From an uncultured virus (IMG/VR IMGVR_UViG_3300028888_000136) (Duplodnaviria > Heunggongvirae > Uroviricota > Caudoviricetes), in IMG/VR virus record IMGVR_UViG_3300028888_000136: 64,000 bases of DNA. One strand, 5' to 3'. Both the position numbers and the translations under genes were made by a program. Below the pieces are notes generated by a model. The model had not been told where the DNA came from, did not search any database, and saw nothing but the letters and a program-made list of their open reading frames with translations. Shown in pieces: positions 9,677-56,894 of this stretch (position 1 is its first letter; each line of letters starts with the position of its first letter).

Positions 9677-9720
9677 AAATCCGCGCTTTGAGTACATTAC
9701 CCTCGGCGCGGATTTCTTTT
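9677..9720. terminator. Bidirectional intrinsic terminator between convergent genes
   Basis: aaatccgcgc...gcgcggattt inverted repeat. Confidence 0.7.
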
Positions 9721-9750
9721 AATTAAAAAATAAGTAAAAATGAAAGAAGT

Positions 9751-10503
9751 TTATGCACCCGTAAGGGCGTTTTTGCGTTTGTTTATTACGTTTCTGAAAT
9801 TAACGTTGTTATGCAGATTCGGGTTGCTGTCCCAGTAGTATTTCAGTCTGTCAATAGTGTCGGCGTTCATCACCAAACCATACAACTGTCTGTCAATCAT
9901 TGACTTGTCTGTTGCCGCAGTTGCCGTGCAAAACGCTTTGTTTATGTTTTCAACAGCTTTCTTGGCGTAATTGGCTGTTCTTTGCGCGGTCTGGATTACC
10001 TCTTGTACATTTGAGTTAGGGTAATTGAAAACCACGTTCCCGAAACGGTCAACAATTACCAGTTTGGTTATTTTCTTCCCATCGTACCCGATTTCCTTCA
10101 CCGTGAACGTCATATTCATCTTGTCGTTGTAGTAATATGAATCTTGACATTTGATTTTGATTTTTGGAGTGGTATATAACTCTCTACCAATACCCCAGTT
10201 GAAACACGCCCTTTTGAACGCATCGGATGCCTCGCCTTTCTCCGCATCCGCACTGCTTTCTATGCCGCAATCGTCCTTGAAAATCCACTCTCCGTTATCG
10301 TCTTTGATTCCGACACTGCAATAAAGGTTTCCTTTTACCTCGTAATAGCGTTTCTTCCAGTTCATCTGTCCTACCGTCTCATCCAGAATGTTCATATCAC
10401 ATCTTGCGTCTTTGTACAACAGCAAAAGCGCACTGCCTTTGCACTTCGTGTCAGTGGGTCTGACTTGGATTTCATCTGCTTTCAAATTTCTAAACTCTTT
10501 CAT
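9751..10503 (-). CDS. Rad52/Sak-family single-strand annealing protein
   Basis: LYKDAR, EKGEASDAFKRA and WGIGRELY motifs. Confidence 0.85.
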   Translation of the reverse strand: MKEFRNLKADEIQVRPTDTKCKGSALLLLYKDARCDMNILDETVGQMNWKKRYYEVKGNLYCSVGIKDDNGEWIFKDDCGIESSADAEKGEASDAFKRACFNWGIGRELYTTPKIKIKCQDSYYYNDKMNMTFTVKEIGYDGKKITKLVIVDRFGNVVFNYPNSNVQEVIQTAQRTANYAKKAVENINKAFCTATAATDKSMIDRQLYGLVMNADTIDRLKYYWDSNPNLHNNVNFRNVINKRKNALTGA

Positions 10504-10521
10504 TTTTTACTGATTTTTAAT

Positions 10522-10800
10522 TTATAATTTATTTTTGTGTTTTTGATAACTCTTTTTCTCTGACAAGCTGTGTCTCATTTTCCAGTCGTTTATCCTGTCT
10601 TGTGGCCACCTCGCCACTTTGTCATCCAGATATTGGAAGTCTATTCCGCTTTTCAGCTTGAAGTACCCGTATATCACGTTCCGAACCGTCACTACGGCCA
10701 GATGATTGTCTTTTGCCGCCTCTTTCACGCTCGGATAAATCCAGTATATACTTCCGTTGATGTACTTGCCAACCGCTTTCGTTTTCCTCTTCTTTGCCAT
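10522..10800 (-). CDS. Small NUMOD1-like HTH DNA-binding protein
   Basis: YPSVKEAAK...VRNVIYG pattern; absent from unit B. Confidence 0.5.
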   Translation of the reverse strand: MAKKRKTKAVGKYINGSIYWIYPSVKEAAKDNHLAVVTVRNVIYGYFKLKSGIDFQYLDDKVARWPQDRINDWKMRHSLSEKKSYQKHKNKL

Positions 10801-11039
10801 TGCATTAGTTTTGAAGTCTTATTCACGGTAAACTATCTGAAAAGTCCCATTTTTCATTAGTCAAAATTGCTGTGTGTTTACCTCGTGTTTCAATTGTACA
10901 TAATTTCCACGACATATCCAAACCGAAATGCAATTTTTTTTCAAACGCTCGTATTTGCGATTTTTCGGGCGATTTTGTCTATGGATGATTAACTATACCA
11001 GCCATACGGTTAACGCCTCGATTTCGTCATCTTTGACCC

Positions 11040-11114
11040 CTAATTTTTGATTTCTTCGGTATGGGTTTCTGTCGTTCCTTGAGAGATGTAATTTTCTTGT
11101 TCCATATCTGCCAT
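11040..11114 (-). CDS. Conserved 24-aa acidic micro-protein
   Basis: MADMEQENYISQGTTETHTEEIKN; homolog at 44657-44728. Confidence 0.55.
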   Translation of the reverse strand: MADMEQENYISQGTTETHTEEIKN

Positions 11115-11165
11115 AATTTAATGTTTTATTTTCCAAAAGTAAATAGTTTGTTTGAAACAAAAAAA

Positions 11166-11189
11166 CCACCGTGCTTCGGGACACGGTGG
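11166..11189 (-). terminator. Intrinsic terminator
   Basis: 8-bp stem plus U-tract on the minus strand; counterpart at 44841-44866. Confidence 0.7.
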
Positions 11190-11255
11190 AAATTTTACCA
11201 ATTAACTATATATTTACAAACTATACCAGATTTCACGCTCTGGTTAGGCGTTAAT

Positions 11256-11516
11256 TTATTCTTCTTCTTGTTCCTCGTATGCTTCAATCAATTCTTCCAC
11301 ATTGTTATTGAACTCATTAATGCGTTTGGTTAGATAACCATCGTAAGAATTCATTAACAAATCCAGTGTAGTGTGTTTTCGTTGAAATACGTCATTTATA
11401 TCCTCTTCACCATAGTCCTCTATCTTATCCTTAATCTCATCGCACCAGTCAGAAATATCCTCAATCAGCGATTCCCTTTCCGCTTTCAACTCTTCATTTA
11501 ATTCTTCTTTAGTCAT
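11256..11516 (-). CDS. Highly acidic small hypothetical protein
   Basis: D/E-rich 86-aa ORF; unit A only. Confidence 0.7.
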   Translation of the reverse strand: MTKEELNEELKAERESLIEDISDWCDEIKDKIEDYGEEDINDVFQRKHTTLDLLMNSYDGYLTKRINEFNNNVEELIEAYEEQEEE

Positions 11517-11548
11517 AGTAATTTCAATTTTAATTTGTAAATAATATT

Positions 11549-11881
11549 TTAATTTGCTTTTTCTTGTGCCTCTTGTTTTTCAACATACTCTTCAAATTGC
11601 AAGAAAATCCACCCGCTGGCATTGCTGTATGCTTCTGTTATATGTTCTACGTCTTTCAGAAAGAAAACCTCCCGTTTGTCTTTAATTTCAACACACAGCG
11701 TTGAATTGTTCTGAATATACATTAACACCTTGAATCCGTTTTCGCTTTCAAGGACAAAACGCTGCCCAAGCGCGGCACATTGTAGGAAGTTATTGTAAAA
11801 ATCAAACATCATATCAACAAAATTGGTTACGTTTTCGTTGTTCTCTGCGTTTTTGCTCGCCAGCACTTGATTTTCTTTCAT
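11549..11881 (-). CDS. Early hypothetical protein
   Basis: Near-identical to 44934-45263. Confidence 0.75.
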   Translation of the reverse strand: MKENQVLASKNAENNENVTNFVDMMFDFYNNFLQCAALGQRFVLESENGFKVLMYIQNNSTLCVEIKDKREVFFLKDVEHITEAYSNASGWIFLQFEEYVEKQEAQEKAN

Positions 11882-12295
11882 ATTACTTTTTAATTTATAT
11901 CACAACCAACATCGGCTGTATTGGCAGTTGTACCAAAAAAGATATACAAATCCAAATCGAAACGCAAAAAAAAATTCATCGTGCTTGGAAGGTTTTGATT
12001 TTCAGTCTGTTGAGATGAAAAAAAAAAACGTAATTCATAACGGACAGTCACGTTTCGTATCGCGCCCATATATATTATATATTTAAGAATATATTGCTAT
12101 AAGGTAAGAAGCGTACCTTTATAGAATACGTAAGTAATAGTAACGTTACGTAATCGTTTCTTATTTTCTTTTTATGTTACTTTTTCTTTTCTTCTTTTTG
12201 GCAATCTCAATCGGAAAGTTAAATTATGTTAAAAATGCGATGCGATACGTTTTCGGTTTGGAAGTCACGATTTATTTTTGTACAACTACCAGCGA

Positions 12296-12386
12296 GAGAT
12301 AATGGTGAAGGTTAGAGAAACAACAGGCAGGGCTATATCTGGAACAATACCATTATCTCAAAAACTCCAGATGTAGCCCGACCTGT
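12296..12386 (+). ncRNA. Structured 5' leader (putative RNA switch), unit A
   Basis: Long hairpin 12323-12386; loop ACCATTATCTC is the exact complement of upstream GAGATAATGGT. Confidence 0.55.
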
Positions 12387-12405
12387 ATTAACTAACAAAC
12401 ATATT

Positions 12406-12996
12406 ATGGCATACAAAGATACCAAAGAGCTTTGGGACAATTTCAAGTCCTTGAAAGAAACAGCACCATCAATGGATGCGGAAACGTTAAACACGGAGTT
12501 CCAGCGTATTCTCAACAGCGTTGACGAATATTACACACTCCAATGTTACAGGGATGACACACGTAAGAAGATGACAGAACAACTTGAGAGGATTCTGCGT
12601 ATCAAACAAAACTTCATTGACAAGTCTGGCAAACCGACTGTAAAGGGATTTGTGATTTCAGACAATATGCTTCCAACCGAATCGAAAGAGACGATGCGCG
12701 TGGCCATTCTTGACTGTTTCATTGCAATGAGGTTGAACGAAAGATTCTGCTCACTGGTTGACACAGACCAATCGTATTTCTGGGAGTATCTGACACTTTT
12801 GAAACAGTCTGTGGCCAGAAAATACGAGGTCAGCGAGGAGAAAGCCAGACAGACCATCATTGAGCTATGGAACAAGGTGTACGATGACGAAGAAACGGCT
12901 GCGAGAAACGCAAAGGAAACGGCGGAGTTCCTTGCCATTCTCAACGGAGAAAAAACTGGTACAGTTTTTGCTGAAAAAGAAGCGTCAAAAAATTAA
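12406..12996 (+). CDS. First rightward early protein, putatively replication-related
   Basis: Positional equivalent of 46094-46633; similar C-terminal helix (LKQSVARKYEVSEEKAR vs MKENISRQFNVAEEEVR). Confidence 0.55.
   Translation: MAYKDTKELWDNFKSLKETAPSMDAETLNTEFQRILNSVDEYYTLQCYRDDTRKKMTEQLERILRIKQNFIDKSGKPTVKGFVISDNMLPTESKETMRVAILDCFIAMRLNERFCSLVDTDQSYFWEYLTLLKQSVARKYEVSEEKARQTIIELWNKVYDDEETAARNAKETAEFLAILNGEKTGTVFAEKEASKN
12957..12971 (+). promoter_or_regulatory. Sigma54-type -24/-12 promoter
   Basis: TGGTAC-N5-TTGC. Confidence 0.5.
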
Positions 12997-13012
12997 CTTA
13001 ATACCCAATCCT

Positions 13013-13597
13013 ATGAAAAAATTGGACGTAATTGGTATCGCAAATGAATACCAAACAAAAACAAGACTGATTCAAGAGAATATCATCAACTCAATGAAGA
13101 GGTCGGTCAAGACAAGGGATTTCAACAGAATGAAACGCATAAAAAGCCCGTTTGTCGAAGACTGTTTCGTGTTAACCACAAGCGACAGATACACTGGAAC
13201 TATATTCATCAAGGTTGACGGAAAATGGGTGTTCAACAGTGAAAGAGTTGATATTGAGGGTAAGGTTTTTGAATGTTTCAACATCATTTCAGAGCATTGC
13301 ATTGAAAGATTCCGCTGCCGTCTCAATATGTACGCCACGCCAATCGAAGACGTTCTGAAACGTTTTGAAGAATCGTACCTAAACGGAAAATCGTTTTCGA
13401 CCACAACGGACAGATTAGGCCAGTGCGTCTATATTGACACCTACAACGTTGTATGCCCAGTTGAATATACCTATTACAACGGCAATACCAGTTTGGTTTG
13501 CATCATAAAGACAGTGTTAGACCAGCCAGACAGAAAGACAGACGAGGTTAGGGGCAGACAAGATTCAATCCTTGAGAAAATGGCATCAGTGGCGTAA
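13013..13597 (+). CDS. Accessory hypothetical protein
   Basis: ATG follows the repeated cassette leader; start corrected from 12860. Confidence 0.7.
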   Translation: MKKLDVIGIANEYQTKTRLIQENIINSMKRSVKTRDFNRMKRIKSPFVEDCFVLTTSDRYTGTIFIKVDGKWVFNSERVDIEGKVFECFNIISEHCIERFRCRLNMYATPIEDVLKRFEESYLNGKSFSTTTDRLGQCVYIDTYNVVCPVEYTYYNGNTSLVCIIKTVLDQPDRKTDEVRGRQDSILEKMASVA

Positions 13598-13620
13598 ACA
13601 AACCAAATATTGTAAAGAAA

Positions 13621-14133
13621 ATGAAAATAAAGAAACATATCAATTTTGAAAAACTTGACGAAAAGGCCGTCAAAGTGGAGAGTATTGAAGCACTTTTGAA
13701 AGAAGGTGTTATAACGGAAAAAGACATCAGAGTTTTCAACAGTTTTGACATTCTCCCTCACCAATGTCACCATACCAGCATAATGGCGGCTATATTAGGC
13801 GATGGGATTGATAGCGTGGCTGGACGGTTCACCAAAACGAGAAGTGTTTCTGGCTTCCATTGTATCAACCGAAAGAAAGACCAGAACGGAAATTGGAGAT
13901 ATTTCGATTTGACAGACTGGAAAATCGGATTGCATTATAAAAGTTTCTACCAAGAGAGAGCTTTCAACAGAGAGAACGCCTATAACTGTTTCTCTTATTA
14001 CCGTTACAGCTTCAACACCTCTTTCCCCGCTATCGGCAATTTTTACTACGATGACAATGGTGATTTGAAAACCACGATAGACGGTGCTACACCAAGACTA
14101 TTCAGTAAAAGGGAAATTGAAATGTGGGATTAA
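13621..14133 (+). CDS. Accessory hypothetical protein, possible Cys-His-Asp triad
   Basis: QCHH...HCIN...YFDLT pattern resembles transglutaminase-like folds (inference). Confidence 0.55.
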   Translation: MKIKKHINFEKLDEKAVKVESIEALLKEGVITEKDIRVFNSFDILPHQCHHTSIMAAILGDGIDSVAGRFTKTRSVSGFHCINRKKDQNGNWRYFDLTDWKIGLHYKSFYQERAFNRENAYNCFSYYRYSFNTSFPAIGNFYYDDNGDLKTTIDGATPRLFSKREIEMWD

Positions 14134-14145
14134 GCTGGTGATTTC

Positions 14146-14160
14146 TGGCACGGTTTTTGC
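14146..14160 (+). promoter_or_regulatory. Sigma54-type -24/-12 promoter
   Basis: TGGCAC-N5-TTGC, consensus match. Confidence 0.6.
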
Positions 14161-14200
14161 ATATAGCCAACTGTCAAAAAATAACTTAAACCCAATCAGT

Positions 14201-14725
14201 ATGAAAAAGATTTTATTTGCAGCATTGGCATTCGTGGCCATCGTTTCAAGTTCCTGCACCGATTCACAGAAAGCCAGAATCTATGTCAAACGTTACCTCG
14301 GTGACGATGTTAAGATTACCGATTTCACGTATAATGAGAAAGACACGGTTTACACGTTTGACGAAATGTATGAAGTGTTGAAACAAGTGGACTACAAAGA
14401 TAACGAGGCGAGGCGTTATAAGAGATTATCGGACAAACATTTTCTTTTCGGTAGCGTAAGTCTTGGCGAAAGATACGGTGACAAAGCGTGTGAGATGTTG
14501 AGTGAAGAAAACATATTGCTTGATATTTTAGGCGATATGCAGCCAACGAAACATATTGTAAGCACCGTTGAAGTAACATACAGAAACAGCGAAAACAACT
14601 ACAAAACAGACAAGTTCACACTGACAAAAACACACACTGTCGGAGGCAAAATCGAAAGTCTCGGTGTAACCCTTGAAGAGTTCAATACCTTGATGAGAAA
14701 AATAGCAAACAAACCGCTTGACTAA
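14201..14725 (+). CDS. Predicted lipoprotein
   Basis: MKKILFAALAFVAIVSSS-C signal; start corrected from 14084. Confidence 0.7.
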   Translation: MKKILFAALAFVAIVSSSCTDSQKARIYVKRYLGDDVKITDFTYNEKDTVYTFDEMYEVLKQVDYKDNEARRYKRLSDKHFLFGSVSLGERYGDKACEMLSEENILLDILGDMQPTKHIVSTVEVTYRNSENNYKTDKFTLTKTHTVGGKIESLGVTLEEFNTLMRKIANKPLD

Positions 14726-14731
14726 ACAGGT

Positions 14732-15202
14732 ATGAAAGAATATTTATTTACACTTATTTTTGCGGTTTTGTCAAGTGCCGCTTATTCCCAGAGCTTCACT
14801 ATTGAAAATGTCGTTGGAAGAGGACAATATTTCAAATACGAAACCGAAACCCAATACGAAAAATGGACTGTCAAATACCTTAATGTTACGAAAGACAGTG
14901 ATAGTTACAAAGTATCGTGTCAATTATACAACGTGAACGAATCGTTTTATGACGAAATACCTAATGACACCACTGTTTACACGTTCATTGGTGATTTCAC
15001 AAAGTCAACACGTAAAGACGGTACAGGGTACACGCTCAAACATTCGGAAGAGGACGGTTATGCAAACTATACCGTCAGCGTATGCAAGAGCGGGTGTTTT
15101 GACGAAATAACCATAATGATACATTACCAAGTTCTGACAAGCGGTTATGTTGTTTTTATAGATATGACAACAGAAGAATTTCAAAAATGCCAACATAATT
15201 AA
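14732..15202 (+). CDS. Predicted exported protein
   Basis: Signal peptide ending AYS-Q. Confidence 0.7.
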   Translation: MKEYLFTLIFAVLSSAAYSQSFTIENVVGRGQYFKYETETQYEKWTVKYLNVTKDSDSYKVSCQLYNVNESFYDEIPNDTTVYTFIGDFTKSTRKDGTGYTLKHSEEDGYANYTVSVCKSGCFDEITIMIHYQVLTSGYVVFIDMTTEEFQKCQHN

Positions 15203-15222
15203 TACACAACACACAAACAGTT

Positions 15223-15708
15223 ATGAAAAAGTATTTATTAACACTTGTTTTAACAATTGCTTCAATTGTATCAACGAAAGCACAAGACATATTCGTATTT
15301 GAAAAAGACACGGTAAACAACAAATATGACAGCACTCTTGTTGTTTCCTGCAAACTCCACGAAGGTGACTGTTTGTATGTACAAGTTTATGGATATGAAA
15401 GCAAAGGTGTAAGAGCAGAGATGGACACTGTTGTTTTGTTGGAATATAAAATAAAAAACAATACAAATCGTGTGAAAATCGGATTCGTGACAAAAGACGA
15501 AGTATCTTGGGAGGTGGTTTATTACATAATTGATTACAGAATATTCTACAAAGGCGAGTTTTGTTATGATTATGCGTGTGATTGTTACAGATATATGCGA
15601 GTAAACAAAGGTAGCCATATAAGATTTACAAGACCAGAAGAGAACGAAGGAAACTATGAATGGGCTTTTTATAACCAAAAGACTGGTGTGCATACACTAT
15701 CATATTGA
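15223..15708 (+). CDS. Predicted exported protein
   Basis: Signal peptide ending TKA-Q. Confidence 0.7.
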   Translation: MKKYLLTLVLTIASIVSTKAQDIFVFEKDTVNNKYDSTLVVSCKLHEGDCLYVQVYGYESKGVRAEMDTVVLLEYKIKNNTNRVKIGFVTKDEVSWEVVYYIIDYRIFYKGEFCYDYACDCYRYMRVNKGSHIRFTRPEENEGNYEWAFYNQKTGVHTLSY

Positions 15709-15726
15709 TAATCAACACGTAATTTT

Positions 15727-15741
15727 TGGCACAGTTTTTGC
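15727..15741 (+). promoter_or_regulatory. Sigma54-type -24/-12 promoter
   Basis: TGGCAC-N5-TTGC. Confidence 0.6.
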
Positions 15742-15812
15742 TTATAGGTAAGCGTCAAAAAAATAATTTCATTCACCAAAAGGTATGGCTACCGTATAAC
15801 AGCCAGAAAGAT

Positions 15813-16337
15813 ATGAATAACAACATCAGAGAGACCATCAGCAACAACGTGAACAACACCATCGCCAACCACGAGAGCGGAAGATTCGTCATTGAGAACA
15901 TCATTGACTTCTATGACTTCAAGTATTCCATTGACGTGGAGAAAAGTGATGACCATTATATCTATTTCCCTATCGTGGAAATTGAAAGTCTGGAGTACAA
16001 TGTGAAGATTGTTGACAACACTGCCAGTGCCGAATGCACTTATTTTGGTGATGATGCCGCAGAAGACATTACAGATTACATTGAATCTATGTACGAGAGT
16101 TTCATTCAGTATGTAACCGATATGCGTGAAATCGTTGAGAACGAAGTCAAAAGAGATATGGATATTCTCGGTGAAGATTTCAATTCAGATGACACTTTGG
16201 CTGACATTCAGACCAACTATATTGACGATATTGACGATTACGATTTTGAGTTCTCAACTGACGCTGACAAGTCCTTCAAGTCTATGTGGTACGAGACTTT
16301 TCTTGAGTGTGTTGACCAGATGAAAGCAACAAGATAG
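15813..16337 (+). CDS. Very acidic hypothetical protein
   Basis: D/E-rich; start corrected from 15726. Confidence 0.7.
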   Translation: MNNNIRETISNNVNNTIANHESGRFVIENIIDFYDFKYSIDVEKSDDHYIYFPIVEIESLEYNVKIVDNTASAECTYFGDDAAEDITDYIESMYESFIQYVTDMREIVENEVKRDMDILGEDFNSDDTLADIQTNYIDDIDDYDFEFSTDADKSFKSMWYETFLECVDQMKATR

Positions 16338-16368
16338 TCATTCATAACTTATAATTTTAATTGTTTGG

Positions 16369-16405
16369 AAATCAGTCCTTTGCTTAAGGGCTGATTTTTT
16401 TTTTT
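16369..16405 (+). terminator. Intrinsic terminator
   Basis: aaatcagtcctt...aagggctgattt followed by a T-run. Confidence 0.75.
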
Positions 16406-16474
16406 AGGTTTTTCTTGACTTTTTTGGTATAATAGGTTATATTGTTAACAAATAATCTATTAAATTACTGGAAA

Positions 16475-17080
16475 ATGCAGAAATACGACCCTATCAGCGT
16501 GCTGGTGAACAGCGGAAACAAGTGGAGGGTGTTCACGACAGAGAGTTTCACCATACGACCGATAGTAAACCATTTGCAGCGATACAACGCTGATTTCAAC
16601 ATACGCAAAGTCCGTTACGGCTACTTTCCGACAGAAATACTGCCTAACAACACGTCTTGGACAAAAATGACTTTGTACGAAGTGAATGATATGTTTGACG
16701 TGATAGACGAGGACACCAATTTCGACACAATACCGAGTGTCCCAGACCTCAAGAAACACCTTCTGGAGAACTACGACTACAGAACCGCATTATCTATGTG
16801 GTATATTCATTGTGCAAACAGCCACATATACCCCTCAAAATCGGTTTTCAGAGGCGTTAAGGTATCGGACATCCCAGATTGGCTGATAACGCAAACAGGG
16901 CGATGCCAGAGGCCTTGTTTCGTGTCTGACAAAGACAACCCATATACAAACGTGTGGGATATTCTCAAATATTACGATGGAAGAAGGATAGACAGAATGA
17001 TTAACGGCCAGAAGGTCAGCGGCTATCTTCTTGATTCAATGAGAATAACGAATGGAGAATCCGACACGTATGGCGTATAA
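16475..17080 (+). CDS. Conserved hypothetical protein
   Basis: Homolog of 47413-47976 (LLENYDYRTA shared). Confidence 0.75.
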   Translation: MQKYDPISVLVNSGNKWRVFTTESFTIRPIVNHLQRYNADFNIRKVRYGYFPTEILPNNTSWTKMTLYEVNDMFDVIDEDTNFDTIPSVPDLKKHLLENYDYRTALSMWYIHCANSHIYPSKSVFRGVKVSDIPDWLITQTGRCQRPCFVSDKDNPYTNVWDILKYYDGRRIDRMINGQKVSGYLLDSMRITNGESDTYGV

Positions 17081-17390
17081 CATTGACGAATCGGATTTTG
17101 TTTACTACTGCACAAAATGCTATTCCCTTGACATTAGGACTGACAACAAGAAATGTATGCACTGCCATTCCTGCGGTGCTGACATCTACAATATAGACAT
17201 TACCAGCTTCCATAGATGGGAAGAGCTTTACCAAGACAAATACGGACGCAAACTCGTTGAAAAGACGAGCGTTTATGACGATTTGAACGAAGTGTTGGCC
17301 GATGAAGGCGAAGTGATTATGACCGCTGACGAGGCGTTGTCGAACCAGATGAACGTTGGTGACGTAATCAACAGAAAAATAAAAGACTAA
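17070..17390 (+). CDS. Zinc-ribbon protein
   Basis: CxxC...CxxC; homolog of 47960-48295. Confidence 0.7.
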   Translation: MAYNIDESDFVYYCTKCYSLDIRTDNKKCMHCHSCGADIYNIDITSFHRWEELYQDKYGRKLVEKTSVYDDLNEVLADEGEVIMTADEALSNQMNVGDVINRKIKD

Positions 17391-17403
17391 ACTATGAAGA
17401 CAA

Positions 17404-17895
17404 TTGGACAAAAACAAAGTGAAAGCACGCGAAATAACGGACTATGCTTATTTCAAGATGATGATACCAGAAGGATGGACAACGACCCATTCGACAGACG
17501 AATACTCACGTTACGATGCGACCGTGACAAACGGCAACAAAGTGATTTACACGGAGTTGAAGGGAAGGGACATTGAGATTACGGACAAAATCAAAAGCGA
17601 AGGCGCATATATAGAATGCGCGAAAGCCGACTATCTCTACAAACTCGGTGACGCTGCGATAGTACAGATGTTCTGGAAGTCAAACGTGACCTATGTATGG
17701 AACTTGAAGGACAGAGGCGAATGGGAGAAGGTTTACAAGTATATAGACAACAACAACGAAACGAGGAAGGATGTAGGCAAATGGGTTTACCTGTTGCCGT
17801 TTGACGAAAAGAACGCCAGATACACGGTGGATTTGACCGATTACCCAGTAATGCTTGAAAATATTTATAATAAATTGGAAAACAACGAGATATGA
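17404..17895 (+). CDS. PD-(D/E)xK nuclease-like protein
   Basis: YD...ELKGR motif; homolog of 48317-48844. Confidence 0.6.
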   Translation: MDKNKVKAREITDYAYFKMMIPEGWTTTHSTDEYSRYDATVTNGNKVIYTELKGRDIEITDKIKSEGAYIECAKADYLYKLGDAAIVQMFWKSNVTYVWNLKDRGEWEKVYKYIDNNNETRKDVGKWVYLLPFDEKNARYTVDLTDYPVMLENIYNKLENNEI

Positions 17896-18125
17896 ACATT
17901 GAGAGAAGAGCGTGGAAAAACCTCCACAGACTTATAGAGGACGGGCTTCTGACAGAGAAAGAGAGCTGGGAGCTTGCCTGCGGAATATTCAAAATCAACA
18001 TCGAATATTACCCTCAATACATACAGCCGAATGACATACAGATACCGTTTGACGCGAGTTCTATTGACGAACAACAGCAAATAAATGAAACCAAAGTCAA
18101 AGGTTTCGCACCTACGAATAATTGA
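17892..18125 (+). CDS. Small conserved hypothetical protein
   Basis: Homolog of 48863-49069 (LI.DG.L.EKE, VKGF). Confidence 0.7.
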   Translation: MNIERRAWKNLHRLIEDGLLTEKESWELACGIFKINIEYYPQYIQPNDIQIPFDASSIDEQQQINETKVKGFAPTNN

Positions 18126-18142
18126 GAAAAATTCAAAGGTAA

Positions 18143-18655
18143 ATGGCTGATATAAACAAGATTATACCGAAAATCAAAAAATGGGAAGGCGGTTATGTAT
18201 CACACCCAGCAGACACAGACGGCGGTTGCACTATGCAAGGAATTACACTAACGACTTTCAGACGCTATTACGGGCGCGATAAGAATTGCAATGACCTCAA
18301 AAAAATAACAAATGACCAATGGAAACACATTTTGAAAACTGGATATTGGGACAAAATGAAAGCCGATGAAATTGAAAACCAGTCAATTGCGGAGTTATGC
18401 GTTCAAATGTGCTGGGGAAGCGGAGCGGTTACAGCAATAAAGAAGATACAAAGGTGTTTGGGGACAGAAGCGGACGGTATAGTAGGAAAAAAGACGCTTG
18501 CACTGCTTAACGGAGAGAACAGAGCCGAAATACACGCAAAATTACTTGAAATGAGACGCTTGTGGTTTATGAACATCGTACAGAACAATCCAAAAAAGAA
18601 AGTGTTTTTGAATGGATGGTTGAATCGTTTGGCTACGTTTGTCTTTGAAGAATAA
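18143..18655 (+). CDS. Endolysin, glycoside hydrolase family 108
   Basis: EGGYVSHPADTDGGCT..GI motif and C-terminal FLNGWLNR. Confidence 0.88.
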   Translation: MADINKIIPKIKKWEGGYVSHPADTDGGCTMQGITLTTFRRYYGRDKNCNDLKKITNDQWKHILKTGYWDKMKADEIENQSIAELCVQMCWGSGAVTAIKKIQRCLGTEADGIVGKKTLALLNGENRAEIHAKLLEMRRLWFMNIVQNNPKKKVFLNGWLNRLATFVFEE

Positions 18656-18674
18656 GAAGGAAATTGCGTAATGA

Positions 18675-19070
18675 ATGTCAAAATCAAAACACAAGAAAGA
18701 CGTAGGGAAATTCAAATCACATTTTGAATTGGAGGTTGCGGAGGTGATTGGCGGTGACAAATACGAGGTAGCGGAGGTGGACTATGAAGAGCCAGCTGTG
18801 AGCCACAAATACACGCCAGATTTCACGATTACGGCCACGGATGGACACACAGTCCACTTTGAGACGAAAGGCCGTTTCAGAACGAAATCCGAGGCCGACA
18901 AATACATCTGGGTGAGGGATTCCAATCCAGATATAGACTTACGTTTTATCATAATGGGCAAAAAGACGCTTATGCCACGGTCAAAGAAGACCACAATGTA
19001 CGATTGGTTGAGAAAGAACGGTTTCACTGTGTACGTGTGGCCTAATTTGCCGAATATGAAAAAACTTTAG
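18675..19070 (+). CDS. T7 endonuclease I-like Holliday junction resolvase
   Basis: KSHFE...YTPDF...ETKGRF...DLRF. Confidence 0.85.
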   Translation: MSKSKHKKDVGKFKSHFELEVAEVIGGDKYEVAEVDYEEPAVSHKYTPDFTITATDGHTVHFETKGRFRTKSEADKYIWVRDSNPDIDLRFIIMGKKTLMPRSKKTTMYDWLRKNGFTVYVWPNLPNMKKL

Positions 19071-19136
19071 TTAGGATTTGGAAATCTCAAATACATTTGC
19101 AATAATAGTATTGAACTTTTTTCGTACATAAAATTT

Positions 19137-19490
19137 TTATTTTTTGGTTTGAACCCCGTCAGAATCCGCTGGCGGGGTTTTGTGTTTCTTATGGAGAAAC
19201 CTGTTTACACGCGCCGCACAGACAGCGAAAGAACGCCTTGACTTGAAACAGAACCTGCCTATGTTCTCGTTGTCAACCAGAACGAGGTAAGCCCCGATAT
19301 TGGGCAGATAATCACCCGTGTGCCTGTCGAATTTCAATTCTTGGCATACAATGACCTCACCGAAATAAACAGATTCGTCTTCATCCATAATGATGATGTA
19401 CGCACCAGTATCGTCAAGGGCTTCGACAATATCATCCGTGGTTAGAAACGCGCCTTTTCTGGCATCGTCTTCCGTAATTATTATCTCCAT
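19137..19490 (-). CDS. Moron-like hypothetical protein with its own promoter
   Basis: TATTTTTG box upstream on the minus strand; unit A only. Confidence 0.6.
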   Translation of the reverse strand: MEIIITEDDARKGAFLTTDDIVEALDDTGAYIIIMDEDESVYFGEVIVCQELKFDRHTGDYLPNIGAYLVLVDNENIGRFCFKSRRSFAVCAARVNRFLHKKHKTPPADSDGVQTKK

Positions 19491-19756
19491 ATAGCTTTGT
19501 CGTTTAATACCAGCAAAAATACATTTTTTCCAGACAAGTCAAAAAAATATTAAAAAGACTTGACATTTCAAATAAAAATCGTATCTTTGCCGCCGACTTC
19601 ACTGGTCATACGGCCAGTCCCCCTTACCCTTTGGGTAGAAGAAGTTATTTTTTGACACTTGGGAGGTTAACGCCTCCCTTTTTTGATATGTCATTATGTC
19701 AGAACGGTTCTGCCATTCTGTCAGGTTGATATTGCAACTTGTTGAACGGCAAACAG

Positions 19757-19834
19757 AAAGGGACTGCCAAAAACGACAGTCCCAAGTCCAAGCCCGACAC
19801 TGGAAAACCAGACAAGTCAAACGGCGCGAAAATA
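19757..19834 (-). ncRNA. Putative small RNA downstream of integrase, unit A
   Basis: TATTTTCG box, conserved body and terminator; homolog at 51010-51097. Confidence 0.5.
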
Positions 19835-19842
19835 CAAAATAT

Positions 19843-20811
19843 TCACAACAGACGGCTGTTGGCTTCAAAAAGTCTGTCAGTCGGTATCTCACCCAGATAA
19901 TTGTCCGTTATGCCGAGATTATGACCGAGATTGCGCTCAATGACGGCGTAATTGACACCTTCGGAGTTCAGCACGGTGCAGTATGAATGTCTGGCGAATG
20001 TGAACGAGCAATCGCACCGCAAACCGAGTTTCCCGCACACTTTGCGCAATACCTTGCTGGCGTAGGTGTTGACATACATAACGCGCATTTCAACGGCTTC
20101 ATCGTCATTGACATCAACGCCTCCGAGATAAGAGCCGAATACAAGCCCGCCAGATTCGTATTCGTCACCAATGGAATCCAAGAGGGATTTCAATTGTCCA
20201 GTTATCGGGACACGCACGTATGCCCCGCTGGTGTTTCTTACTTTCCGCCTGTGGAATCCGAACACCCTGCCGCCAGAATTGTCGTATTCGCTGTCGTACC
20301 TCAACCTCAAGAGGTCTGCCGCGTTAGCACCGTTGCAGAGGTACGAGGCCAAGAACAGACCCAGCCATCTTTTAACGCCCTTCGGCTCTTCCCCGACAGA
20401 CACCCAGTAATCCCAAATCCTCTTCATATCTTCTTTGGTGAAATAACTGGACTGTCTTTTTCGCGGTTTCTCCAATTGCACTTTGTCAAGCTCGTAAGGT
20501 TTTGAACGTGTCAGTTTAGGGTCTCCCTTCACATATCCGAGATATTGGCCGTAATGCGTGATGGACTGCAACAGCGCGAAATAGGTTTTTATCGTGGCGG
20601 TTGATTTGCCTTCGCTTTTCAGCGTTTTGTGGAGATTGGATGCAAACTGCGAGTTCACATCGGACATTTTCACTATTCCGTAGTGTGTTTCGATTGTACG
20701 CAACAGCGTGCGGTAGTTTCGGAACGAAGAGCGTCCCTCGCTGCGCATAATCGTCATCTTTTCCGTTACAAGCTCGTTTAACGACCGACCGTCTTTTTTC
20801 ATCTTTTTCAT
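19843..20811 (-). CDS. int: Tyrosine recombinase/integrase
   Basis: GANAADLL, ARHSY and LGH...NYL motifs; SAM-like N-domain. Confidence 0.9.
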   Translation of the reverse strand: MKKMKKDGRSLNELVTEKMTIMRSEGRSSFRNYRTLLRTIETHYGIVKMSDVNSQFASNLHKTLKSEGKSTATIKTYFALLQSITHYGQYLGYVKGDPKLTRSKPYELDKVQLEKPRKRQSSYFTKEDMKRIWDYWVSVGEEPKGVKRWLGLFLASYLCNGANAADLLRLRYDSEYDNSGGRVFGFHRRKVRNTSGAYVRVPITGQLKSLLDSIGDEYESGGLVFGSYLGGVDVNDDEAVEMRVMYVNTYASKVLRKVCGKLGLRCDCSFTFARHSYCTVLNSEGVNYAVIERNLGHNLGITDNYLGEIPTDRLFEANSRLL

Positions 20812-20856
20812 TTTTCACATTTTTTGGTTAGTTTATACTTTATAACTATTTGATTA

Positions 20857-20905
20857 TCAAATATGCCCGCCATTTTGATGCTGGCAAGACGAAATAATCC
20901 ATATA
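20857..20905. repeat. att-like 49-bp core, copy 1
   Basis: Identical to 52121-52169; contains an imperfect inverted repeat. Confidence 0.7.
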
Positions 20906-20966
20906 ATAAATCTTGACCAGATAAACCGCTGTACCAAAGAACTTTAGGTACAAAAACCTAATTTAT

Positions 20967-21010
20967 GCCACCCACAGAGGTGGCTTTTTTTTGTGCCGCA
21001 AAACTACAAA
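20967..21010. promoter_or_regulatory. Plus-strand terminator abutting a Bacteroidota-type -7 box (TAGTTTTG, minus strand) facing int
   Basis: gccacc/ggtggc stem plus T-run; counterpart at 52231-52275. Confidence 0.6.
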
Positions 21011-29142: not shown

Positions 29143-32004
29143 ATGGCAAAGACAAGAATATTACCAATTCCGCTCGGCGGTGGCGGTGGTGAGTGCAATT
29201 TGCAACAGAAAACCGCCACTCCAACCACATCCACCCAGACAGTCAGACCAGACGCTGGTTATGACGGTATGTCAAGAGTGACGATAGAGGGTGTTGATGC
29301 GAATATTGACCAGAACATCACCCCAGAAAACATCAAGGACGGAGTTGAAATACTCGGTGTGACTGGAACTTACGAAGGCGAAGGCGGACAATGCAACCTT
29401 GAGCAAGGGAAAATTATCAACCAAAACGGAACGTATGACGCGCAATTGGACGGTTATGACGGTTACGGAGAAATAGTGGTTGACGTGCAAGGCGGATGCA
29501 ACCTTGAGAATGGAAAGACAATCACCCAGAACGGCTATTATGATGCCCAGAGCGATGGATATGACGGTTTTGACGCGGTTGATGTGCTTGTACAACCGAA
29601 TGTCGGAAGTTTGTTTGTCGTTCCGCAAGTAATGCAACAGACTTTCAATGCTTCATCTGACGGTTACGATGGATATGACACGGTGGATGTCGCTGGAATG
29701 AACCTTCAATCAAAAACAATTACGCAGAACGGCACGTATGACGCGCAAAGCGATGGATATGACGGTTATTCGTATGTTGATGTTGACGTACAACCGAATG
29801 TCGGTTATAAATTAATAACCCAGAACGGCTATTATAATGCACAGAGCGATGACGGTTGGGACGGCTATTCCGAGGTTGACGTGCAAGTTACACCTAACAT
29901 TTCACACGGTGACGTTTTCACGCCTTCCACGCAGCAACAACAAATAACAGCTCCGATGGCAACTGACGGTTACAACGATTTCACCATTGAGGCCGTGGAT
30001 GCAAACATTGATGCGAATATTCAAGCTGGCAATATAAAGGACGGTGTTACAATTTTGGGTGTCACTGGCACGTACACTGGAGGCGGCAGTGTTGACTATA
30101 ACGAACTGTGTTTCACCGCAAACGAAGCAAACTGCACTGTGGAGATTGAGAATAGCGGCACGAATGCACCCGTTATGTACTACTCAACGGATGGAAGACA
30201 GACTTGGGCTTTGTGGGATTACTCAACAATCACTCTACAGAACGCTGGTGACAAGGTTTACTTTTACGGCAACAATCCAAACGGATTCTCAACATCTGAT
30301 AATGATACCAGTATGTTTGTGACAAGCGGTGATTTGTCGGTCAGTGGTAACATAATGACCCTTTTGACAAGGGACGGCTCTATGACAACCATACCGTCTA
30401 ACGATTGTTTTACATATTTGTTTAGTGACACAAGCATAACATCAGCGGATGATTTGGAGCTTCCAGCGACGACACTGGCAAATAATTGTTATTGTGGTAT
30501 GTTTGATGGATGCGCAAGTCTTGTATCTGTTCCAGAGCTTCCAGCAACAACAATGGCACAATGTTGTTATTATGGTATGTTCCAAGGATGCGCAAGTCTT
30601 GTAAATGCGCCAGAGCTTCCAGCAACGACACTGGCACATCAATGTTATGATTATATGTTCTATGAATGCACCAGTCTTGTGACCGCTCCAGAGCTTCCAG
30701 CAACGACATTGGCGGATTGGTGTTATGAATATATGTTCTATGGATGCACAAGTCTTGTATCTGCACCAGAATTGCCAGCAACTACGCTGGTAAATAATTG
30801 TTACGACAGTATGTTTGAAGACTGTTCAAATCTGAATTACGTTAAAGTCGGTGCTACTTTTTGGGACGAGAATTACGCAAACAATTGGCTTAACAATGTT
30901 TCACCTACTGGAACATTCGTCAAACCTTTTGAACTTGTTGTAGGAACTGGTACTGGCGAGATACCTTCTGACAATCCAAACGGAATCCCAGTTGGTTGGA
31001 CAGTCAAAATCGGAGACCTTGACAAACACGCTTTATGCTTCACAGCAGAAGCCGCAAATGTTGACATATCAATCTCACGTTCAGACACTTTCACTTTACC
31101 CACTTTGTATATCACTACTGATGACGGCGCAACTTGGACGCAGATGCAGCTCCAGACATCGTACCGTATCAAGAATATTGGTGACAAGGCGTATGTATAT
31201 GGAAACAACACGGCGTTGTCAACAGATATGACACACTATCTGTATTTCTCAACAAGCGGTCTGTTTTCCATCAGCGGAAATCTCACCACACTTCTGAATC
31301 CAAACGGAACAACCACATTGCCAGATTACGCTTTCAACGGCTTGTTCATAAATAACACGAGACTGATTAAAGCCGATTTGACGATTCCAGTCACTTCCGT
31401 TGGATTACGCTCTTTGTACGGTACTTTTGAGGGATGTAGTCAAATGGTTGAATGCAATCTTGAATTGTCAGCAACGACACTCGGAGACAATTGCTACGGT
31501 AGAATGTTCTACGGATGCACGAGATTGAGGAATACACCTACGACATTACCAGCGATGACACTTACAGATGCTTGTTACAATGATATGTTCAGCGATTGCA
31601 CATCAATCACAACAGCTCCAGAATTGCCAGCCACAACACTTGCAACAAACTGTTATGCTGGTATGTTCCATAATTGTGACGCTTTGGTTAATGCACCAGC
31701 AACTTTGCCAGCAACAACAACGGCAAGCAATTGTTATAACGGAATGTTCAATTTGTGTGAAAACCTTGAAAAAGCTCCAGAAATATTCGCCGACACGTTT
31801 AACGGTAATATGTACTATATGTTCCGTCAATGCCACAGTCTGAACTATATTAAAGTTCATTGCACGACTTGGGACACTTCTGGTGGAGACAATAGATGGG
31901 TTGAAAACGTTGGTGCGACTGGTACTTTTGAAAAACCTTCTGGAACAAACATCCCGACTGGTATGAACGGAATACCGACTGGATGGACTGTGATTGACTT
32001 CTAA
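29143..32004 (+). CDS. Fibre/adhesin with BspA-like leucine-rich repeats
   Basis: ELPATTLA..CY..MF.GC.SL repeats and ITQNG.Y...DGYDG repeats. Confidence 0.8.
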   Translation: MAKTRILPIPLGGGGGECNLQQKTATPTTSTQTVRPDAGYDGMSRVTIEGVDANIDQNITPENIKDGVEILGVTGTYEGEGGQCNLEQGKIINQNGTYDAQLDGYDGYGEIVVDVQGGCNLENGKTITQNGYYDAQSDGYDGFDAVDVLVQPNVGSLFVVPQVMQQTFNASSDGYDGYDTVDVAGMNLQSKTITQNGTYDAQSDGYDGYSYVDVDVQPNVGYKLITQNGYYNAQSDDGWDGYSEVDVQVTPNISHGDVFTPSTQQQQITAPMATDGYNDFTIEAVDANIDANIQAGNIKDGVTILGVTGTYTGGGSVDYNELCFTANEANCTVEIENSGTNAPVMYYSTDGRQTWALWDYSTITLQNAGDKVYFYGNNPNGFSTSDNDTSMFVTSGDLSVSGNIMTLLTRDGSMTTIPSNDCFTYLFSDTSITSADDLELPATTLANNCYCGMFDGCASLVSVPELPATTMAQCCYYGMFQGCASLVNAPELPATTLAHQCYDYMFYECTSLVTAPELPATTLADWCYEYMFYGCTSLVSAPELPATTLVNNCYDSMFEDCSNLNYVKVGATFWDENYANNWLNNVSPTGTFVKPFELVVGTGTGEIPSDNPNGIPVGWTVKIGDLDKHALCFTAEAANVDISISRSDTFTLPTLYITTDDGATWTQMQLQTSYRIKNIGDKAYVYGNNTALSTDMTHYLYFSTSGLFSISGNLTTLLNPNGTTTLPDYAFNGLFINNTRLIKADLTIPVTSVGLRSLYGTFEGCSQMVECNLELSATTLGDNCYGRMFYGCTRLRNTPTTLPAMTLTDACYNDMFSDCTSITTAPELPATTLATNCYAGMFHNCDALVNAPATLPATTTASNCYNGMFNLCENLEKAPEIFADTFNGNMYYMFRQCHSLNYIKVHCTTWDTSGGDNRWVENVGATGTFEKPSGTNIPTGMNGIPTGWTVIDF

Positions 32005-32138: not shown

Positions 32139-33911
32139 ATGAGATTTATAGATTACTTGACAGCAAACAACCAGACTGGCGATTGGGAACCGCAATGCAA
32201 AATTGACACTGGAATAGCTATGACAGACCCAGACATAACCATTCGTATCAAATACAAGCAGAAATATCCATCCAGAGGATGGACTTTCTGTGACAGGATA
32301 GTTGGATATGCACCAACTATTGATTATCAAGATGAAGTCGGTGGTACAGGCGGAGGGTTTAGACTTTTCGGTTGGAGTGGCGGTACTTTTGACTGTGGTG
32401 GAAGATGGACTAATTTGGGAATTGTTGAACAAGATACAATGTATGATTTGACTTTCAATACAAACTACCTGTTTGACAATACAGATGGTACTATGCTTGT
32501 TACCAGTGCTGGCGGAGTAGTTCCAACAGTAGTAGGTACACATATATTCATTGACGTAAGTTGGACTGAAATATATGAGCTTACTATTCAAAATAACAAC
32601 GGCCTTCTTTTAGATGGCAAACCAGCTGTTGACAACAACGGAAATGTAGGACTGTGGGATTCCGTTTCTGAAAGCTTAATTTACAATCCAGATTTGGATA
32701 TGTACGACCCGAACCCAGTGGACTGTACGGACTGTAATAATTGGCAAGAATGCGGCTACGAATCATACGAAGACTGTCAGTGTCAACAATATGGAGAATG
32801 TCAACAGCCAGACTGTACGGACTGTACCAATTGGGAGGAGTGCGGGTATGAATCTCTTGAAGAGTGTCAGAACACACACAAAGTAAATTTATTACCATCT
32901 ACAATGAATAGGATTCATTTGCAAATATCTGGTGGCGGATGGCCAAATGAAAGAATTTACATAGGCGATATTTATGTCTGGGATGATGATGACAACGAGA
33001 TGGACAGTTTTCTGGAAGTTTACGTCAACAACGGACATATAAATTATTATGACAATGATTGGGATGACGATTTCGGCAGATATGTGGTTGAAACACATAC
33101 AGATACTGAACTTTTGATAAAATTTGAACCAGAGGAAAGAGGATGGTACATTGAATTTGAACAGTCGTTTGACAACTGTGAAGACTGGGAAAGCAGAGGT
33201 TATGAGAGTTATAGCGATTGTAATTGTCAAAACAATCAAATTTGCCCTCCAGAACCAGACTGCACCGACTGTAACAACTGGTCTGAATGTGGATATGAAA
33301 GCTATGATGATTGCCGTTGTCAACAATATGGCGAATGCCCTCCAGACTGTACGGATTGTAACAATTGGGAAGATTGCGGATATGAATCTTATGATGATTG
33401 CAGATGCCAACAGTACGGTGAATGCCCTCCAGAACCTCCAGTCCCTCCTGTTCCTGAAAGAACAAGGATAGTGGAGATACTTATGGACATACTCAAGGGA
33501 ATGGCCGAAGACGAATATTGTGATTTGGCATCATACCAATACAACGACAAACCTACAGCCAACATAGTGTTGGACAAGAAAATGGATGACCCTACGGCAT
33601 TGTTAATACAGATAACAGACTGGAAAATTGACTGGTCCAAAGGAAGGATATTGGAGAAAGCAGCTATAAATCTGTCTTTCCTGAAAAAAGAGCCTAAACT
33701 TGACGCCAAAGGCATTGAACAGGAGGCTATTGTGAGCGATATGAAGGATTTGGCTATTGAGTTCCTGAGAAGGCTGAAGCAACGCAGATTCCAAGTGAGG
33801 ATAGTTGACGATGAAATAACGGTAAAATCTGTTTTCTTGCGCTCAGACAGCAACAGGACTGGTGTTAATTTACAATTTGAATTAGAGGAGGTACAGGGAA
33901 ATTGTCTATGA
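32139..33911 (+). CDS. Cys-rich repeat protein with C-terminal putative tail-terminator domain
   Basis: DCTDCNNW.ECGYESY.DC.CQQYGEC repeats; C-domain homologous to that of 2-724. Confidence 0.7.
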   Translation: MRFIDYLTANNQTGDWEPQCKIDTGIAMTDPDITIRIKYKQKYPSRGWTFCDRIVGYAPTIDYQDEVGGTGGGFRLFGWSGGTFDCGGRWTNLGIVEQDTMYDLTFNTNYLFDNTDGTMLVTSAGGVVPTVVGTHIFIDVSWTEIYELTIQNNNGLLLDGKPAVDNNGNVGLWDSVSESLIYNPDLDMYDPNPVDCTDCNNWQECGYESYEDCQCQQYGECQQPDCTDCTNWEECGYESLEECQNTHKVNLLPSTMNRIHLQISGGGWPNERIYIGDIYVWDDDDNEMDSFLEVYVNNGHINYYDNDWDDDFGRYVVETHTDTELLIKFEPEERGWYIEFEQSFDNCEDWESRGYESYSDCNCQNNQICPPEPDCTDCNNWSECGYESYDDCRCQQYGECPPDCTDCNNWEDCGYESYDDCRCQQYGECPPEPPVPPVPERTRIVEILMDILKGMAEDEYCDLASYQYNDKPTANIVLDKKMDDPTALLIQITDWKIDWSKGRILEKAAINLSFLKKEPKLDAKGIEQEAIVSDMKDLAIEFLRRLKQRRFQVRIVDDEITVKSVFLRSDSNRTGVNLQFELEEVQGNCL

Positions 33912-44471: not shown

Positions 44472-44656
44472 TTTTAACTAATTTTAATTTATAATTATTT
44501 TTGTTTTTTTTTTTCTAACTAACGGGAAACAGTTGCTTGAAAAATCCCAATTTTCATCAATATCAAAATTGCTGTGCGTTTCCCTTGATGAATAAGTTTC
44601 ATATTGCTTTCTGTATATAAATATACAAAAAAATACAGAGAATTCAAAATTAAAAA

Positions 44657-45699: not shown

Positions 45700-45890
45700 C
45701 TATAGGTATATTAGTAATATCTATATTACTTTATTAAATAGATATTAGTAATATCGATATTATTAATTGGGGTTATAACGCCAATCAAATTGAAAAATTC
45801 CCCAATCAAATACTAATTGATTGGGTATATAACGCCAATCAATTTATATGTTCCGCATATTGACTGGTATTATATTACCAATCAAAATAG
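45700..45890. repeat. Putative replication origin: CCAATCAA iteron-like repeats in AT-rich DNA
   Basis: CCAATCAA at 45781, 45802, 45835 and 45878; inverted copy at 45817; duplicated TATTAGTAATATC upstream. Confidence 0.6.
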
Positions 45891-45990
45891 CAGTGTTATT
45901 TCTTAAAAATTGTTAAAAATAATTATTTTTTAGAAAATTATTGATTTATTAGCTATTTATTTGTATAATAGTAATAGAAAGTAGCAGTGC

Positions 45991-46089
45991 GATACCACAT
46001 AGCACATAGAGGAATAATGGCTGTCAGATTGGAACTTATGGTAGTGGTATCCCGTAACTCCAACGACAGCCGCTTTTTTAAGATACCAC
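45991..46089 (+). ncRNA. Structured 5' leader (putative RNA switch), unit B
   Basis: GATACCAC (45991), hairpin with loop GTGGTATC (46044), GATACCAC (46082) just before the ATG. Confidence 0.6.
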
Positions 46090-46093: not shown

Positions 46094-46633
46094 ATGTTAC
46101 AGTTAACAAATTATTCCAAGCTACCGAGCATAATATTTAACTCGGTGGAACTAAACCCAAATGAAAAAATAATGCTTGCATATTTGACCAACAGAGCAAA
46201 TTATTTCAATAGAGAAGATGATTGGTTTGGTGTTCCTCTTTGTTGTTTTGCAAGTGATATAGGTTTCAATGACCACCACAAAGTGTCTGATGTCAGAAAG
46301 TCTCTTGTGAATATGGGTCTTATAGAGTATAAGAGAGGCGGCAATGCGAAATCATCCAAATACAAAGTATGCTGGGATAATATTTATGAAAACCTCACAT
46401 CAAGATATGAAACAAAAACAGAAGAAGAGAATCAAATCAACGATGTGATAAATGAAAAAATAGAAGACGTAATAAACAATAAGAAATCAAATTACGACAT
46501 ATCGTTCGAAAATCCAGAGTTTCGTAAAAAACTTACCGCTATGAAGGAAAATATTTCAAGACAATTCAATGTAGCAGAAGAAGAGGTACGAAATAACATA
46601 ATAAACACTTTTAATAATAAAATTAAAATTTAA
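46094..46633 (+). CDS. Winged-HTH putative replication initiator
   Basis: L.PNEKIML.YL...R.SL..GLIEY.RG pattern; adjacent to the iteron-like repeats. Confidence 0.6.
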   Translation: MLQLTNYSKLPSIIFNSVELNPNEKIMLAYLTNRANYFNREDDWFGVPLCCFASDIGFNDHHKVSDVRKSLVNMGLIEYKRGGNAKSSKYKVCWDNIYENLTSRYETKTEEENQINDVINEKIEDVINNKKSNYDISFENPEFRKKLTAMKENISRQFNVAEEEVRNNIINTFNNKIKI

Positions 46634-56820: not shown

Positions 56821-56894
56821 GGGCGAGTAGCTCAGTTGGCAGAGCATCTGGTTTGCAACCAGAGGGTCGTGGGTTCAAATCCCACCTGCGTCCA
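56821..56894 (+). tRNA. tRNA-Ala(UGC)
   Basis: Cloverleaf; anticodon arm tctgg-tttgcaa-ccaga; GTTCAAAT T-loop; G3:U70. Confidence 0.9.

Follow-up and report, generated by a model that had tools for sequence, protein, structure and literature searches.

A two-hairpin leader with complementary loops before the early operon of related temperate gut phages: a candidate RNA attenuator

According to the available parts of the literature, the CI RNA of P4 derives from a leader and pairs with complementary sites up- and downstream of itself, which leads to early termination before the replication genes (PMC4825925). In the C4 RNA of P1 and P7, specificity is borne by a loop, and a 4-nt change separates P1 from P7 (PMC5320573). 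In the pT181 attenuator and in the loop-loop control of rep in ColIb-P9 and pMU720, specificity was altered by loop swaps (PMC3753616). The leader considered here was not found described in the literature retrieved, nor in the accessible text of a review of phage small RNAs (PMC12197685). It was likewise not found in the accessible text and six supplementary files of a survey of viral structured RNAs (PMC10690425), whose files 1, 2 and 4, outside the search, may list it as an unnamed candidate. As judged from sequence, this leader family is a real, conserved and co-varying RNA leader located before the early operon of small temperate gut phages, and it very probably has a regulatory role.

The window, that is, the whole stretch of 64,000 nt that was analysed, belongs to a contig of 64,924 nt composed of two related phage genomes of ~32-33 kb each, unit A (1-32.2 kb of the contig) and unit B (33.2-64.9 kb). 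In contrast to the satellite P4, both are complete tailed phages, each with its own small and large terminase, portal, protease, capsid and tape-measure genes in addition to a tyrosine integrase and Erf, and both probably infect Bacteroidota. Such a host is suggested by TANNTTTG-type boxes, by BT4734-like domains in relatives and by distant integrase relatives (23-31%) in Bacteroidota genome bins. TANNTTTG is given as the consensus of the Bacteroidota -7 promoter box (PMC6847099). The integrase search of GTDB returned relatives at only 23-31% identity, the terminase search was positive for 3 of 401 Bacteroidales-order genomes, all distant, and a GenBank phage set contained no match. Four sequencing runs (X1-X4) were compared; the source of three is given as sheep or bovine gut, and the fourth carries no organism label. 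A tRNA-Ala gene (56821-56893) lies between the protease and capsid genes of unit B, and relative L067 has a tRNA in the same position.

The original prediction placed A and B as divergent sisters in one array. The way in which they are joined does not support this. An exact repeat of 1,044 nt (32178..33221, plus strand) forms the A-to-B join of the window and also the B-to-A join of IMG/VR record G001, so that the order is A-repeat-B in the one and B-repeat-A in the other, and the two ends of the contig each overlap this repeat by 127 nt. The shared repeat and the end overlaps point to paths through a collapsed node of the assembly graph. In run X1, depths were 11.0, 11.6 and 12.8 for A-only stretches, 46.4, 42.4 and 45.2 for B-only stretches and 62 for the repeat contig, as taken from long contigs without differing letters, contig depth being a rough measure. 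This roughly fourfold gap argues against a strict 1:1 tandem and suggests that most B molecules lack A. Runs X2 and X3 cover A-only stretches and almost nothing of the 34.5-41 kb part of B (at 90% likeness), such absence of cover being only a hint. Three relatives, G410, G419 and G415, are represented by records of unit length that bear direct repeats at their ends. Thus, A and B are probably separate phage circles of one community, joined by the assembler. One physical array, with the repeat join and the X1 depths against it, is quite improbable, even if a minority of A-B tandems together with free B would give the depths observed. More generally, assembly through a common tail segment of 1 kb can produce an apparent tandem "array" from sister phages. 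A tail gene with BspA-type leucine-rich repeats is found at 29143-32004. Record G002 is identical to unit A up to ~30.8 kb and diverges near its own end, so that tail segments are mosaic among strains.

In unit A, an 11-nt complementarity had been claimed and it is exact: the upstream seed GAGATAATGGT (12296..12306, plus strand) is the reverse complement of the anti-seed ACCATTATCTC (12349..12359, plus strand), and each is single-copy in the window. An 11-nt match to the loop arises within the 92 nt upstream in 25 of 20,000 dinucleotide shuffles. Among ~1,400 real 92-nt windows of the contig, and not counting the antisense copy of the loop, only the leader itself has it. The upstream site belongs to a small hairpin of its own (hairpin 1, 12287..12307, plus strand; 5 bp and an 11-nt loop displaying most of the seed), which had been missed at first, and the unit is on this account, in the predicted fold, a two-hairpin leader. 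Hairpin 2 (12323..12386, plus strand), whose loop carries the anti-seed, has a 19-bp core extendable to 12311-12396, a 22-nt loop (12344-12365) and a predicted energy of -33 kcal/mol; a U-tract is absent. The 125-nt leader folds with z = -6.2 on the plus strand and -2.97 on the minus strand, and a function on the minus strand, where the fold is weaker, was retained only within the countertranscript explanation discussed below. A weak match around the downstream start codon had also been noted. It is indeed at chance level (longest run 5 nt, 12,817 of 20,000 shuffles; by energy, 415 of 3,000), and a downstream target, of the type called seqC in P4, was rejected for unit A.

A candidate -7 box, TATTTTTG, which fits TANNTTTG, lies at 12273..12280 (plus strand), with a predicted start at ~12286-12288. 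A scan for sigma-70 promoters and terminators gave chance-level results. A 35-nt inverted repeat of 71% identity links 10894-10928 to 12251-12285, which suggests that the two divergent promoters of unit A are duplicates. The leftward Erf operons of A and B have homologous leaders (10815-10870 and 44520-44590, both minus strand). Their long-range stem differs in sequence between A and B with the pairing kept; it is predicted in B and absent from the best fold of A.

Could the leader of unit A alone be a decayed or repurposed copy, with an 11-nt match that merely covers the start of a 24-codon ORF? This ORF (12302..12376, plus strand) has its AUG inside the seed, is not family-wide and is of doubtful function. 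The missing U-tract and downstream site, the orphan first gene and the fact that no replication gene was recognised in A would agree with decay. However, A has the strongest fold and the longest seed of the set, and A-type leaders of two other studies keep the match. In these (runs X2 and X3), 12348 T>C turns the flanking U-G pair with 12307, which in unit A adds a G-U pair to the match, into C-G. The X2 contig has 11 substitutions, and among the 10 listed this is the only one within the leader; it changes one amino acid of the 24-codon ORF. Decay is judged very improbable.

Unit A was said to share the leader architecture of B, and this holds. Hairpin 1 of B (45987..46005, plus strand) displays the seed GATACCAC (45991-45998) in an 11-nt loop. 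The terminator-like element that follows (46019..46079, plus strand) consists of hairpin 2 (46019-46071) with the anti-seed GTGGTATC (46044-46051) and of a U-tract (46074-46079). A copy of the seed then occurs at 46082..46089 (plus strand), 4 nt before the start codon. The distance from target to loop is 53 nt in both units, and the TGGAAC...AACTCCA frame attributed to both occurs exactly twice, at 12340 and 46030; the U-tract is found only in B. The frame is private to A and B, CTCCA being absent from the other seven leaders, and together with the common 53-nt spacing it indicates that the two leaders are homologous. Predicted cross-pairing between A and B amounts to only -2.6/-2.0 kcal/mol, as against -17.1/-13.1 kcal/mol for the cognate pairs. 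As a side observation, a 9-bp pairing is possible between the A loop (12344-12365) and the B loop (46042-46052), with -9.5 kcal/mol and 74 of 5,000 shuffles.

Records of the family were gathered from IMG/VR and from JGI contigs via the integrase, the terminase, the capsid and one early protein, and their early regions were read; two of these searches covered 42 and 33 of 64 database parts. Nine copies of the two-hairpin leader, each placed ahead of the early operon, occur in 8 of 14 distinct related records: A, B, L067 (with a divergent pair, L067R and L067L), G412 (= L047), G410, G416, G417 and G420. The leader was not found in G003, G414 (= G418), G419, G411, G415 and G413, the last being a partial record. 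A strict detector run blind recovered six leaders, and G420 came from the same detector applied to a stretch picked by homology to G416. L067L and G410 were obtained with looser detectors and accepted by eye, hairpin 1, U-tract and start codon being present. Over the 7,488 nt of intergenic sequence in the contig, the strict detector picked out exactly two matches, A and B. Fourteen other loci (23,531 intergenic nt) yielded none, and another fourteen (23,276 nt) yielded three leaders. The 38 rows of the relaxed detector in 74.6 kb comprised 8 accepted leaders, 4 mirror-strand images and 26 background rows, which were dropped. A pattern scan of viral contigs (53 of 64 parts) returned at least 120 loci, four of them with an extension of at least 6 nt; two of these were chance matches and two were the known B and L067R.

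The seeds of hairpins 1 and 2 are, respectively, TTGCCAC/GTGGCAA in L067R, GCCACCAC/GTGGTGGC in L067L, CCTACCACA/TGTGGTAGG in G412, CCGCTAC/GTAGCGG in G416, CCGACAC/GTGTCGG in G417, GGTGCAG/CTGCACC in G420 and CTGCCC/GGGCAG in G410. Spacing from seed to anti-seed ranges from 45 to 63 nt across the nine leaders. The upstream site, reminiscent of seqA of P4, is present in all nine, with shuffle counts of 0-151 of 20,000 for eight of them; the 6-nt seed of G410 is insignificant alone (1,869 of 20,000). A U-tract follows hairpin 2 in every leader save that of A. A downstream seqC-like site, where the seed is repeated directly 5′ of the start codon, exists in B and L067R only, both times in the context CCACAACAATG. 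No Rfam family matched the window or the nine relative loci. A separate small-RNA gene carrying the seed was also considered and rejected: the exact seed copies found elsewhere in seven records look, by eye, like scattered chance matches. In four of the nine leaders (L264, L272, L234, L067), the sequence separating the two hairpins contains an AGATA motif, and these letters also occur inside the upstream seed of A. Besides, a second type of leader was observed in G419, G411 and L068 (L268:4316-4415, plus strand; L069:9218 and L068:3950, both minus strand). It has an 11-bp terminator-like stem and a 23-27-nt loop complementary to two tandem downstream sites, the second beside the AUG, and its loop and sites change together (35, 4 and 97 of 3,000 shuffles).

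Two complementary loops that change together may also be read otherwise. The pRNA of phi29 multimerises through loops, and the leader might similarly be a structural RNA, or else a DNA-level signal near an origin, rather than a regulator. Palindromic and repeated AT-rich motifs, origin-like, do lie 5′ of the B leader (45760-45860). This explanation nevertheless appears very improbable, considering the constant position between promoter-like sequence and first early gene, the U-tracts, the G-U pairs favouring one strand, the start-codon sites of B and L067R, and packaging by a small and a large terminase with an HK97-type head.

If loops define immunity groups, as the original prediction proposed, loop and upstream site should vary in concert among relatives. 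They do change together, in a set of few, related sequences. In the capsid tree, G416 and G417 group as sisters (100/99). Their hairpins 1 are equal except for two seed positions, and both changes are compensated. G420 and G416 share 91-96% identity over four blocks of 1.6-7.9 kb, whereas the 300 nt bearing the leader are unrelated, save an AT-rich motif on the promoter side, and identity returns from the U-tract on. The seed of G420 differs from that of G416 at 6 of 7 positions and is still perfectly matched. By its sequence, the leader thus appears to be exchanged as a cassette between near-identical phages. In G420, moreover, GGUG belongs to hairpin 1 and CACC to hairpin 2, a swapped polarity that gives a precedent for the same arrangement in A. 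In a table of predicted cross-pairing energies, eight of nine loops find their strongest partner in their own target. The A loop is the most isolated, with -17.1 for its own target and -4.1 or weaker for every other. Leaders of the GUGG/CCAC type are predicted to cross-pair strongly (the G412 loop scores -15.6 with the L067R target and -15.3 with its own), so that specificity groups are not all sharp. The two divergent leaders of L067 have a common seed core and a predicted cross-pairing of -14.0, as a diffusible RNA would favour. Taken together, covariation, the predicted lack of cross-pairing between A and B, and cassette exchange fit immunity groups. Since the seed variants of G416, G417 and G420 stand on a near-constant genome, the link between seed and immunity group is directly testable with reporters.

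The genes placed under the leader differ among phages. In B, G410 and G416, the operon 3′ of the leader has initiator-like or primase-type genes, and the first gene of unit B (46094..46633, plus strand) is replication-initiator-like (phrog_270, E 1.3e-6). In unit A, the first gene (12406..12996, plus strand) encodes a helical protein of 196 aa with one distant relative at 25% identity and no family or fold match in Pfam, PHROGs, ESM Atlas or Foldseek, and no replication initiator, primase or helicase was recognised within 9700-21000. Where unit A has this region, G003 has 1.3 kb without long ORFs. Three consecutive ORFs of the A early operon (14201-15708) have signal-peptide-like N-termini and no family match; exclusion or surface proteins are possible. 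G410 (L066:6376-7185) and G417 encode a sigma-70-like protein. Among the scanned early-region ORFs of leader-bearing phages, no cI-type HTH_3 protein was found except in G417, where it is the controller beside a restriction-modification pair; the cassette (L266:10559-12711) comprises this controller, a MamI-type nuclease and a methylase. Of the phages lacking the leader, G415 has an HTH_3/HTH_17 pair, and no repressor was recognised in G003, G414 and G419 either, G411 and G413 being outside the scan. Because these three have neither leader nor recognised repressor, repressor absence tracks the leader poorly.

Folding predictions favour the proposed strand by z-score in all nine leaders, the margin being narrow for B and G417. 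When transcripts are cut just after the anti-seed, the seed helix is predicted to dominate in seven of eight tested, an outcome that partly follows from any perfect match of 7-11 nt; in full-length transcripts, hairpin 2 is predicted to dominate in eight of eight. Considering these properties, a mechanism may be envisaged. Hairpin 1, on the promoter side, has a seed of 6-11 nt, and the loop of hairpin 2, with its U-tract in eight of nine leaders and the first early gene beyond, has the complement. During transcription, the seed is predicted from folding to pair with the emerging anti-seed before hairpin 2 closes. In a naive cell, the seed helix would act as a transient antiterminator and delay hairpin 2, and transcription (or, in A, translation) would go on. 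In a lysogen, accumulated short leader RNA would present a free anti-seed loop and capture hairpin 1 of any newly made transcript that shares the seed. Once hairpin 1 is captured in trans, hairpin 2 would form and the early genes would stay off; phages whose seed differs would escape. Unit A has neither a U-tract nor a start-codon site, and its output would more likely be translational, or pass through a weak or factor-dependent stop. The translational option would agree with the seed covering the AUG of the 24-codon ORF and with the extended hairpin ending 10 nt before the AUG at 12406. According to one study, structure near the start codon lowers initiation in Bacteroidota, in a zone matching 10 nt 5′ of the AUG (PMC6847099).

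The trans-immunity mechanism fits the loop display at both ends, the cassette exchange, the common seed core in L067, the proviral state of relatives and the finding that the scanned ORFs include no cI-type protein apart from the G417 controller. Against it, an intact terminated leader that kisses itself could mask its own loop. On balance, seed-specific immunity in trans stands at even chances, and so does the proposal, made by analogy, that the unit A leader in particular would be an RNA attenuator giving seed-specific self-immunity in the manner of the P4 CI RNA. The metatranscriptome X4 contains only short low-depth contigs, none listed over the A leader, and is uninformative on expression.

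A purely cis-acting attenuator or timer may also be imagined, in which pairing would tune read-through in response to ribosomes, a protein or the speed of the polymerase. Differences between seeds would then reflect neutral turnover or recombined modules and would play no part in discriminating between phages. A single transcript indeed contains all parts, which are enough for two alternative folds, no seed copy was seen in a distinct small-RNA gene, and A and B each have an upstream ORF running through the hairpin. But these ORFs differ in place and sequence and are not family-wide, and leader peptides were rejected as a common mechanism. Moreover, the display of seeds in loops at both ends, and a complete seed change between phages 91-96% alike, are left unexplained. 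A cis-only function is thus considered unlikely.

Another possibility is plasmid-type countertranscript control. An opposite-strand RNA would bind one loop and block the internal pairing, the loop setting the incompatibility group of a plasmid-like prophage. In A, two exact TANNTTTG boxes (12414-12421 and 12396-12403; 12396..12421, minus strand), a possible antisense promoter, point back across the hairpin, and U-rich sequence lies beyond it on that strand. The hairpins form on both strands, and B and L067R have a site beside the start codon of an initiator. In addition, the kissing hairpin of pT181 also holds the antiterminator (PMC3753616). However, exact antisense boxes exist in one of nine leaders only, the opposite strand has the weaker fold z-score in all nine, and relatives G412 and G417 are integrated. 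Such control is judged rather unlikely.

If immunity in trans holds, a broader proposition may be put forward as a tentative one, somewhat more doubtful than believable. In repressor-less temperate Bacteroidota phages, a single self-kissing terminator leader of ~100 nt would make up the whole immunity system, antiterminator in cis and repressor in trans, with a 6-11-nt seed swapped as a cassette, even in reversed polarity (A, G420), which would create open-ended orthogonal immunity groups. The leaders would also offer natural orthogonal RNA switches for Bacteroidota, a phylum with few regulatory parts.

Among known systems, pT181-type attenuators are the nearest rival. There, a 5′ hairpin that precedes a terminator and the rep gene serves as the kissing target and also contributes to the antiterminator (PMC3753616). 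However, pT181 and ColIb-P9 need a separate opposite-strand RNA, whereas the partner here is the terminator's own loop, the hint of an antisense promoter being confined to A. Countertranscript systems control an initiator directly downstream; here, the corresponding gene is initiator-like in B and an orphan in A. In IncI/B plasmids, rep control involves a pseudoknot. C4 (RF01695) shares with these leaders a specificity borne by a loop, loop and target changing together. It differs by its three stems, its two active loops (a' and b'), its excision by RNase P and its antirepressor operon, the leaders being one unbranched hairpin with one anti-seed loop. The RF01695 covariance model had no match in the window or the nine relative loci, control genomes giving none either in one window search, and no protein of the icd/antirepressor family was found among the scanned window proteins. 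The system that the leader works most like is P4 CI with seqA and seqC, and the order of parts is the same in B and L067R. A seqA-like upstream site is present in all nine leaders; a seqC-like site is found in two and is absent from A. In contrast to P4 CI, these leaders have a single unbranched hairpin with one seed loop. Since A lacks the U-tract, the downstream site and a recognised replication gene, the textbook output of P4 does not fit this unit. The leaders would extend the RNA-only immunity of enterobacterial phages (P4, P1/P7) by a minimal, differently folded version in phages of Bacteroidota.
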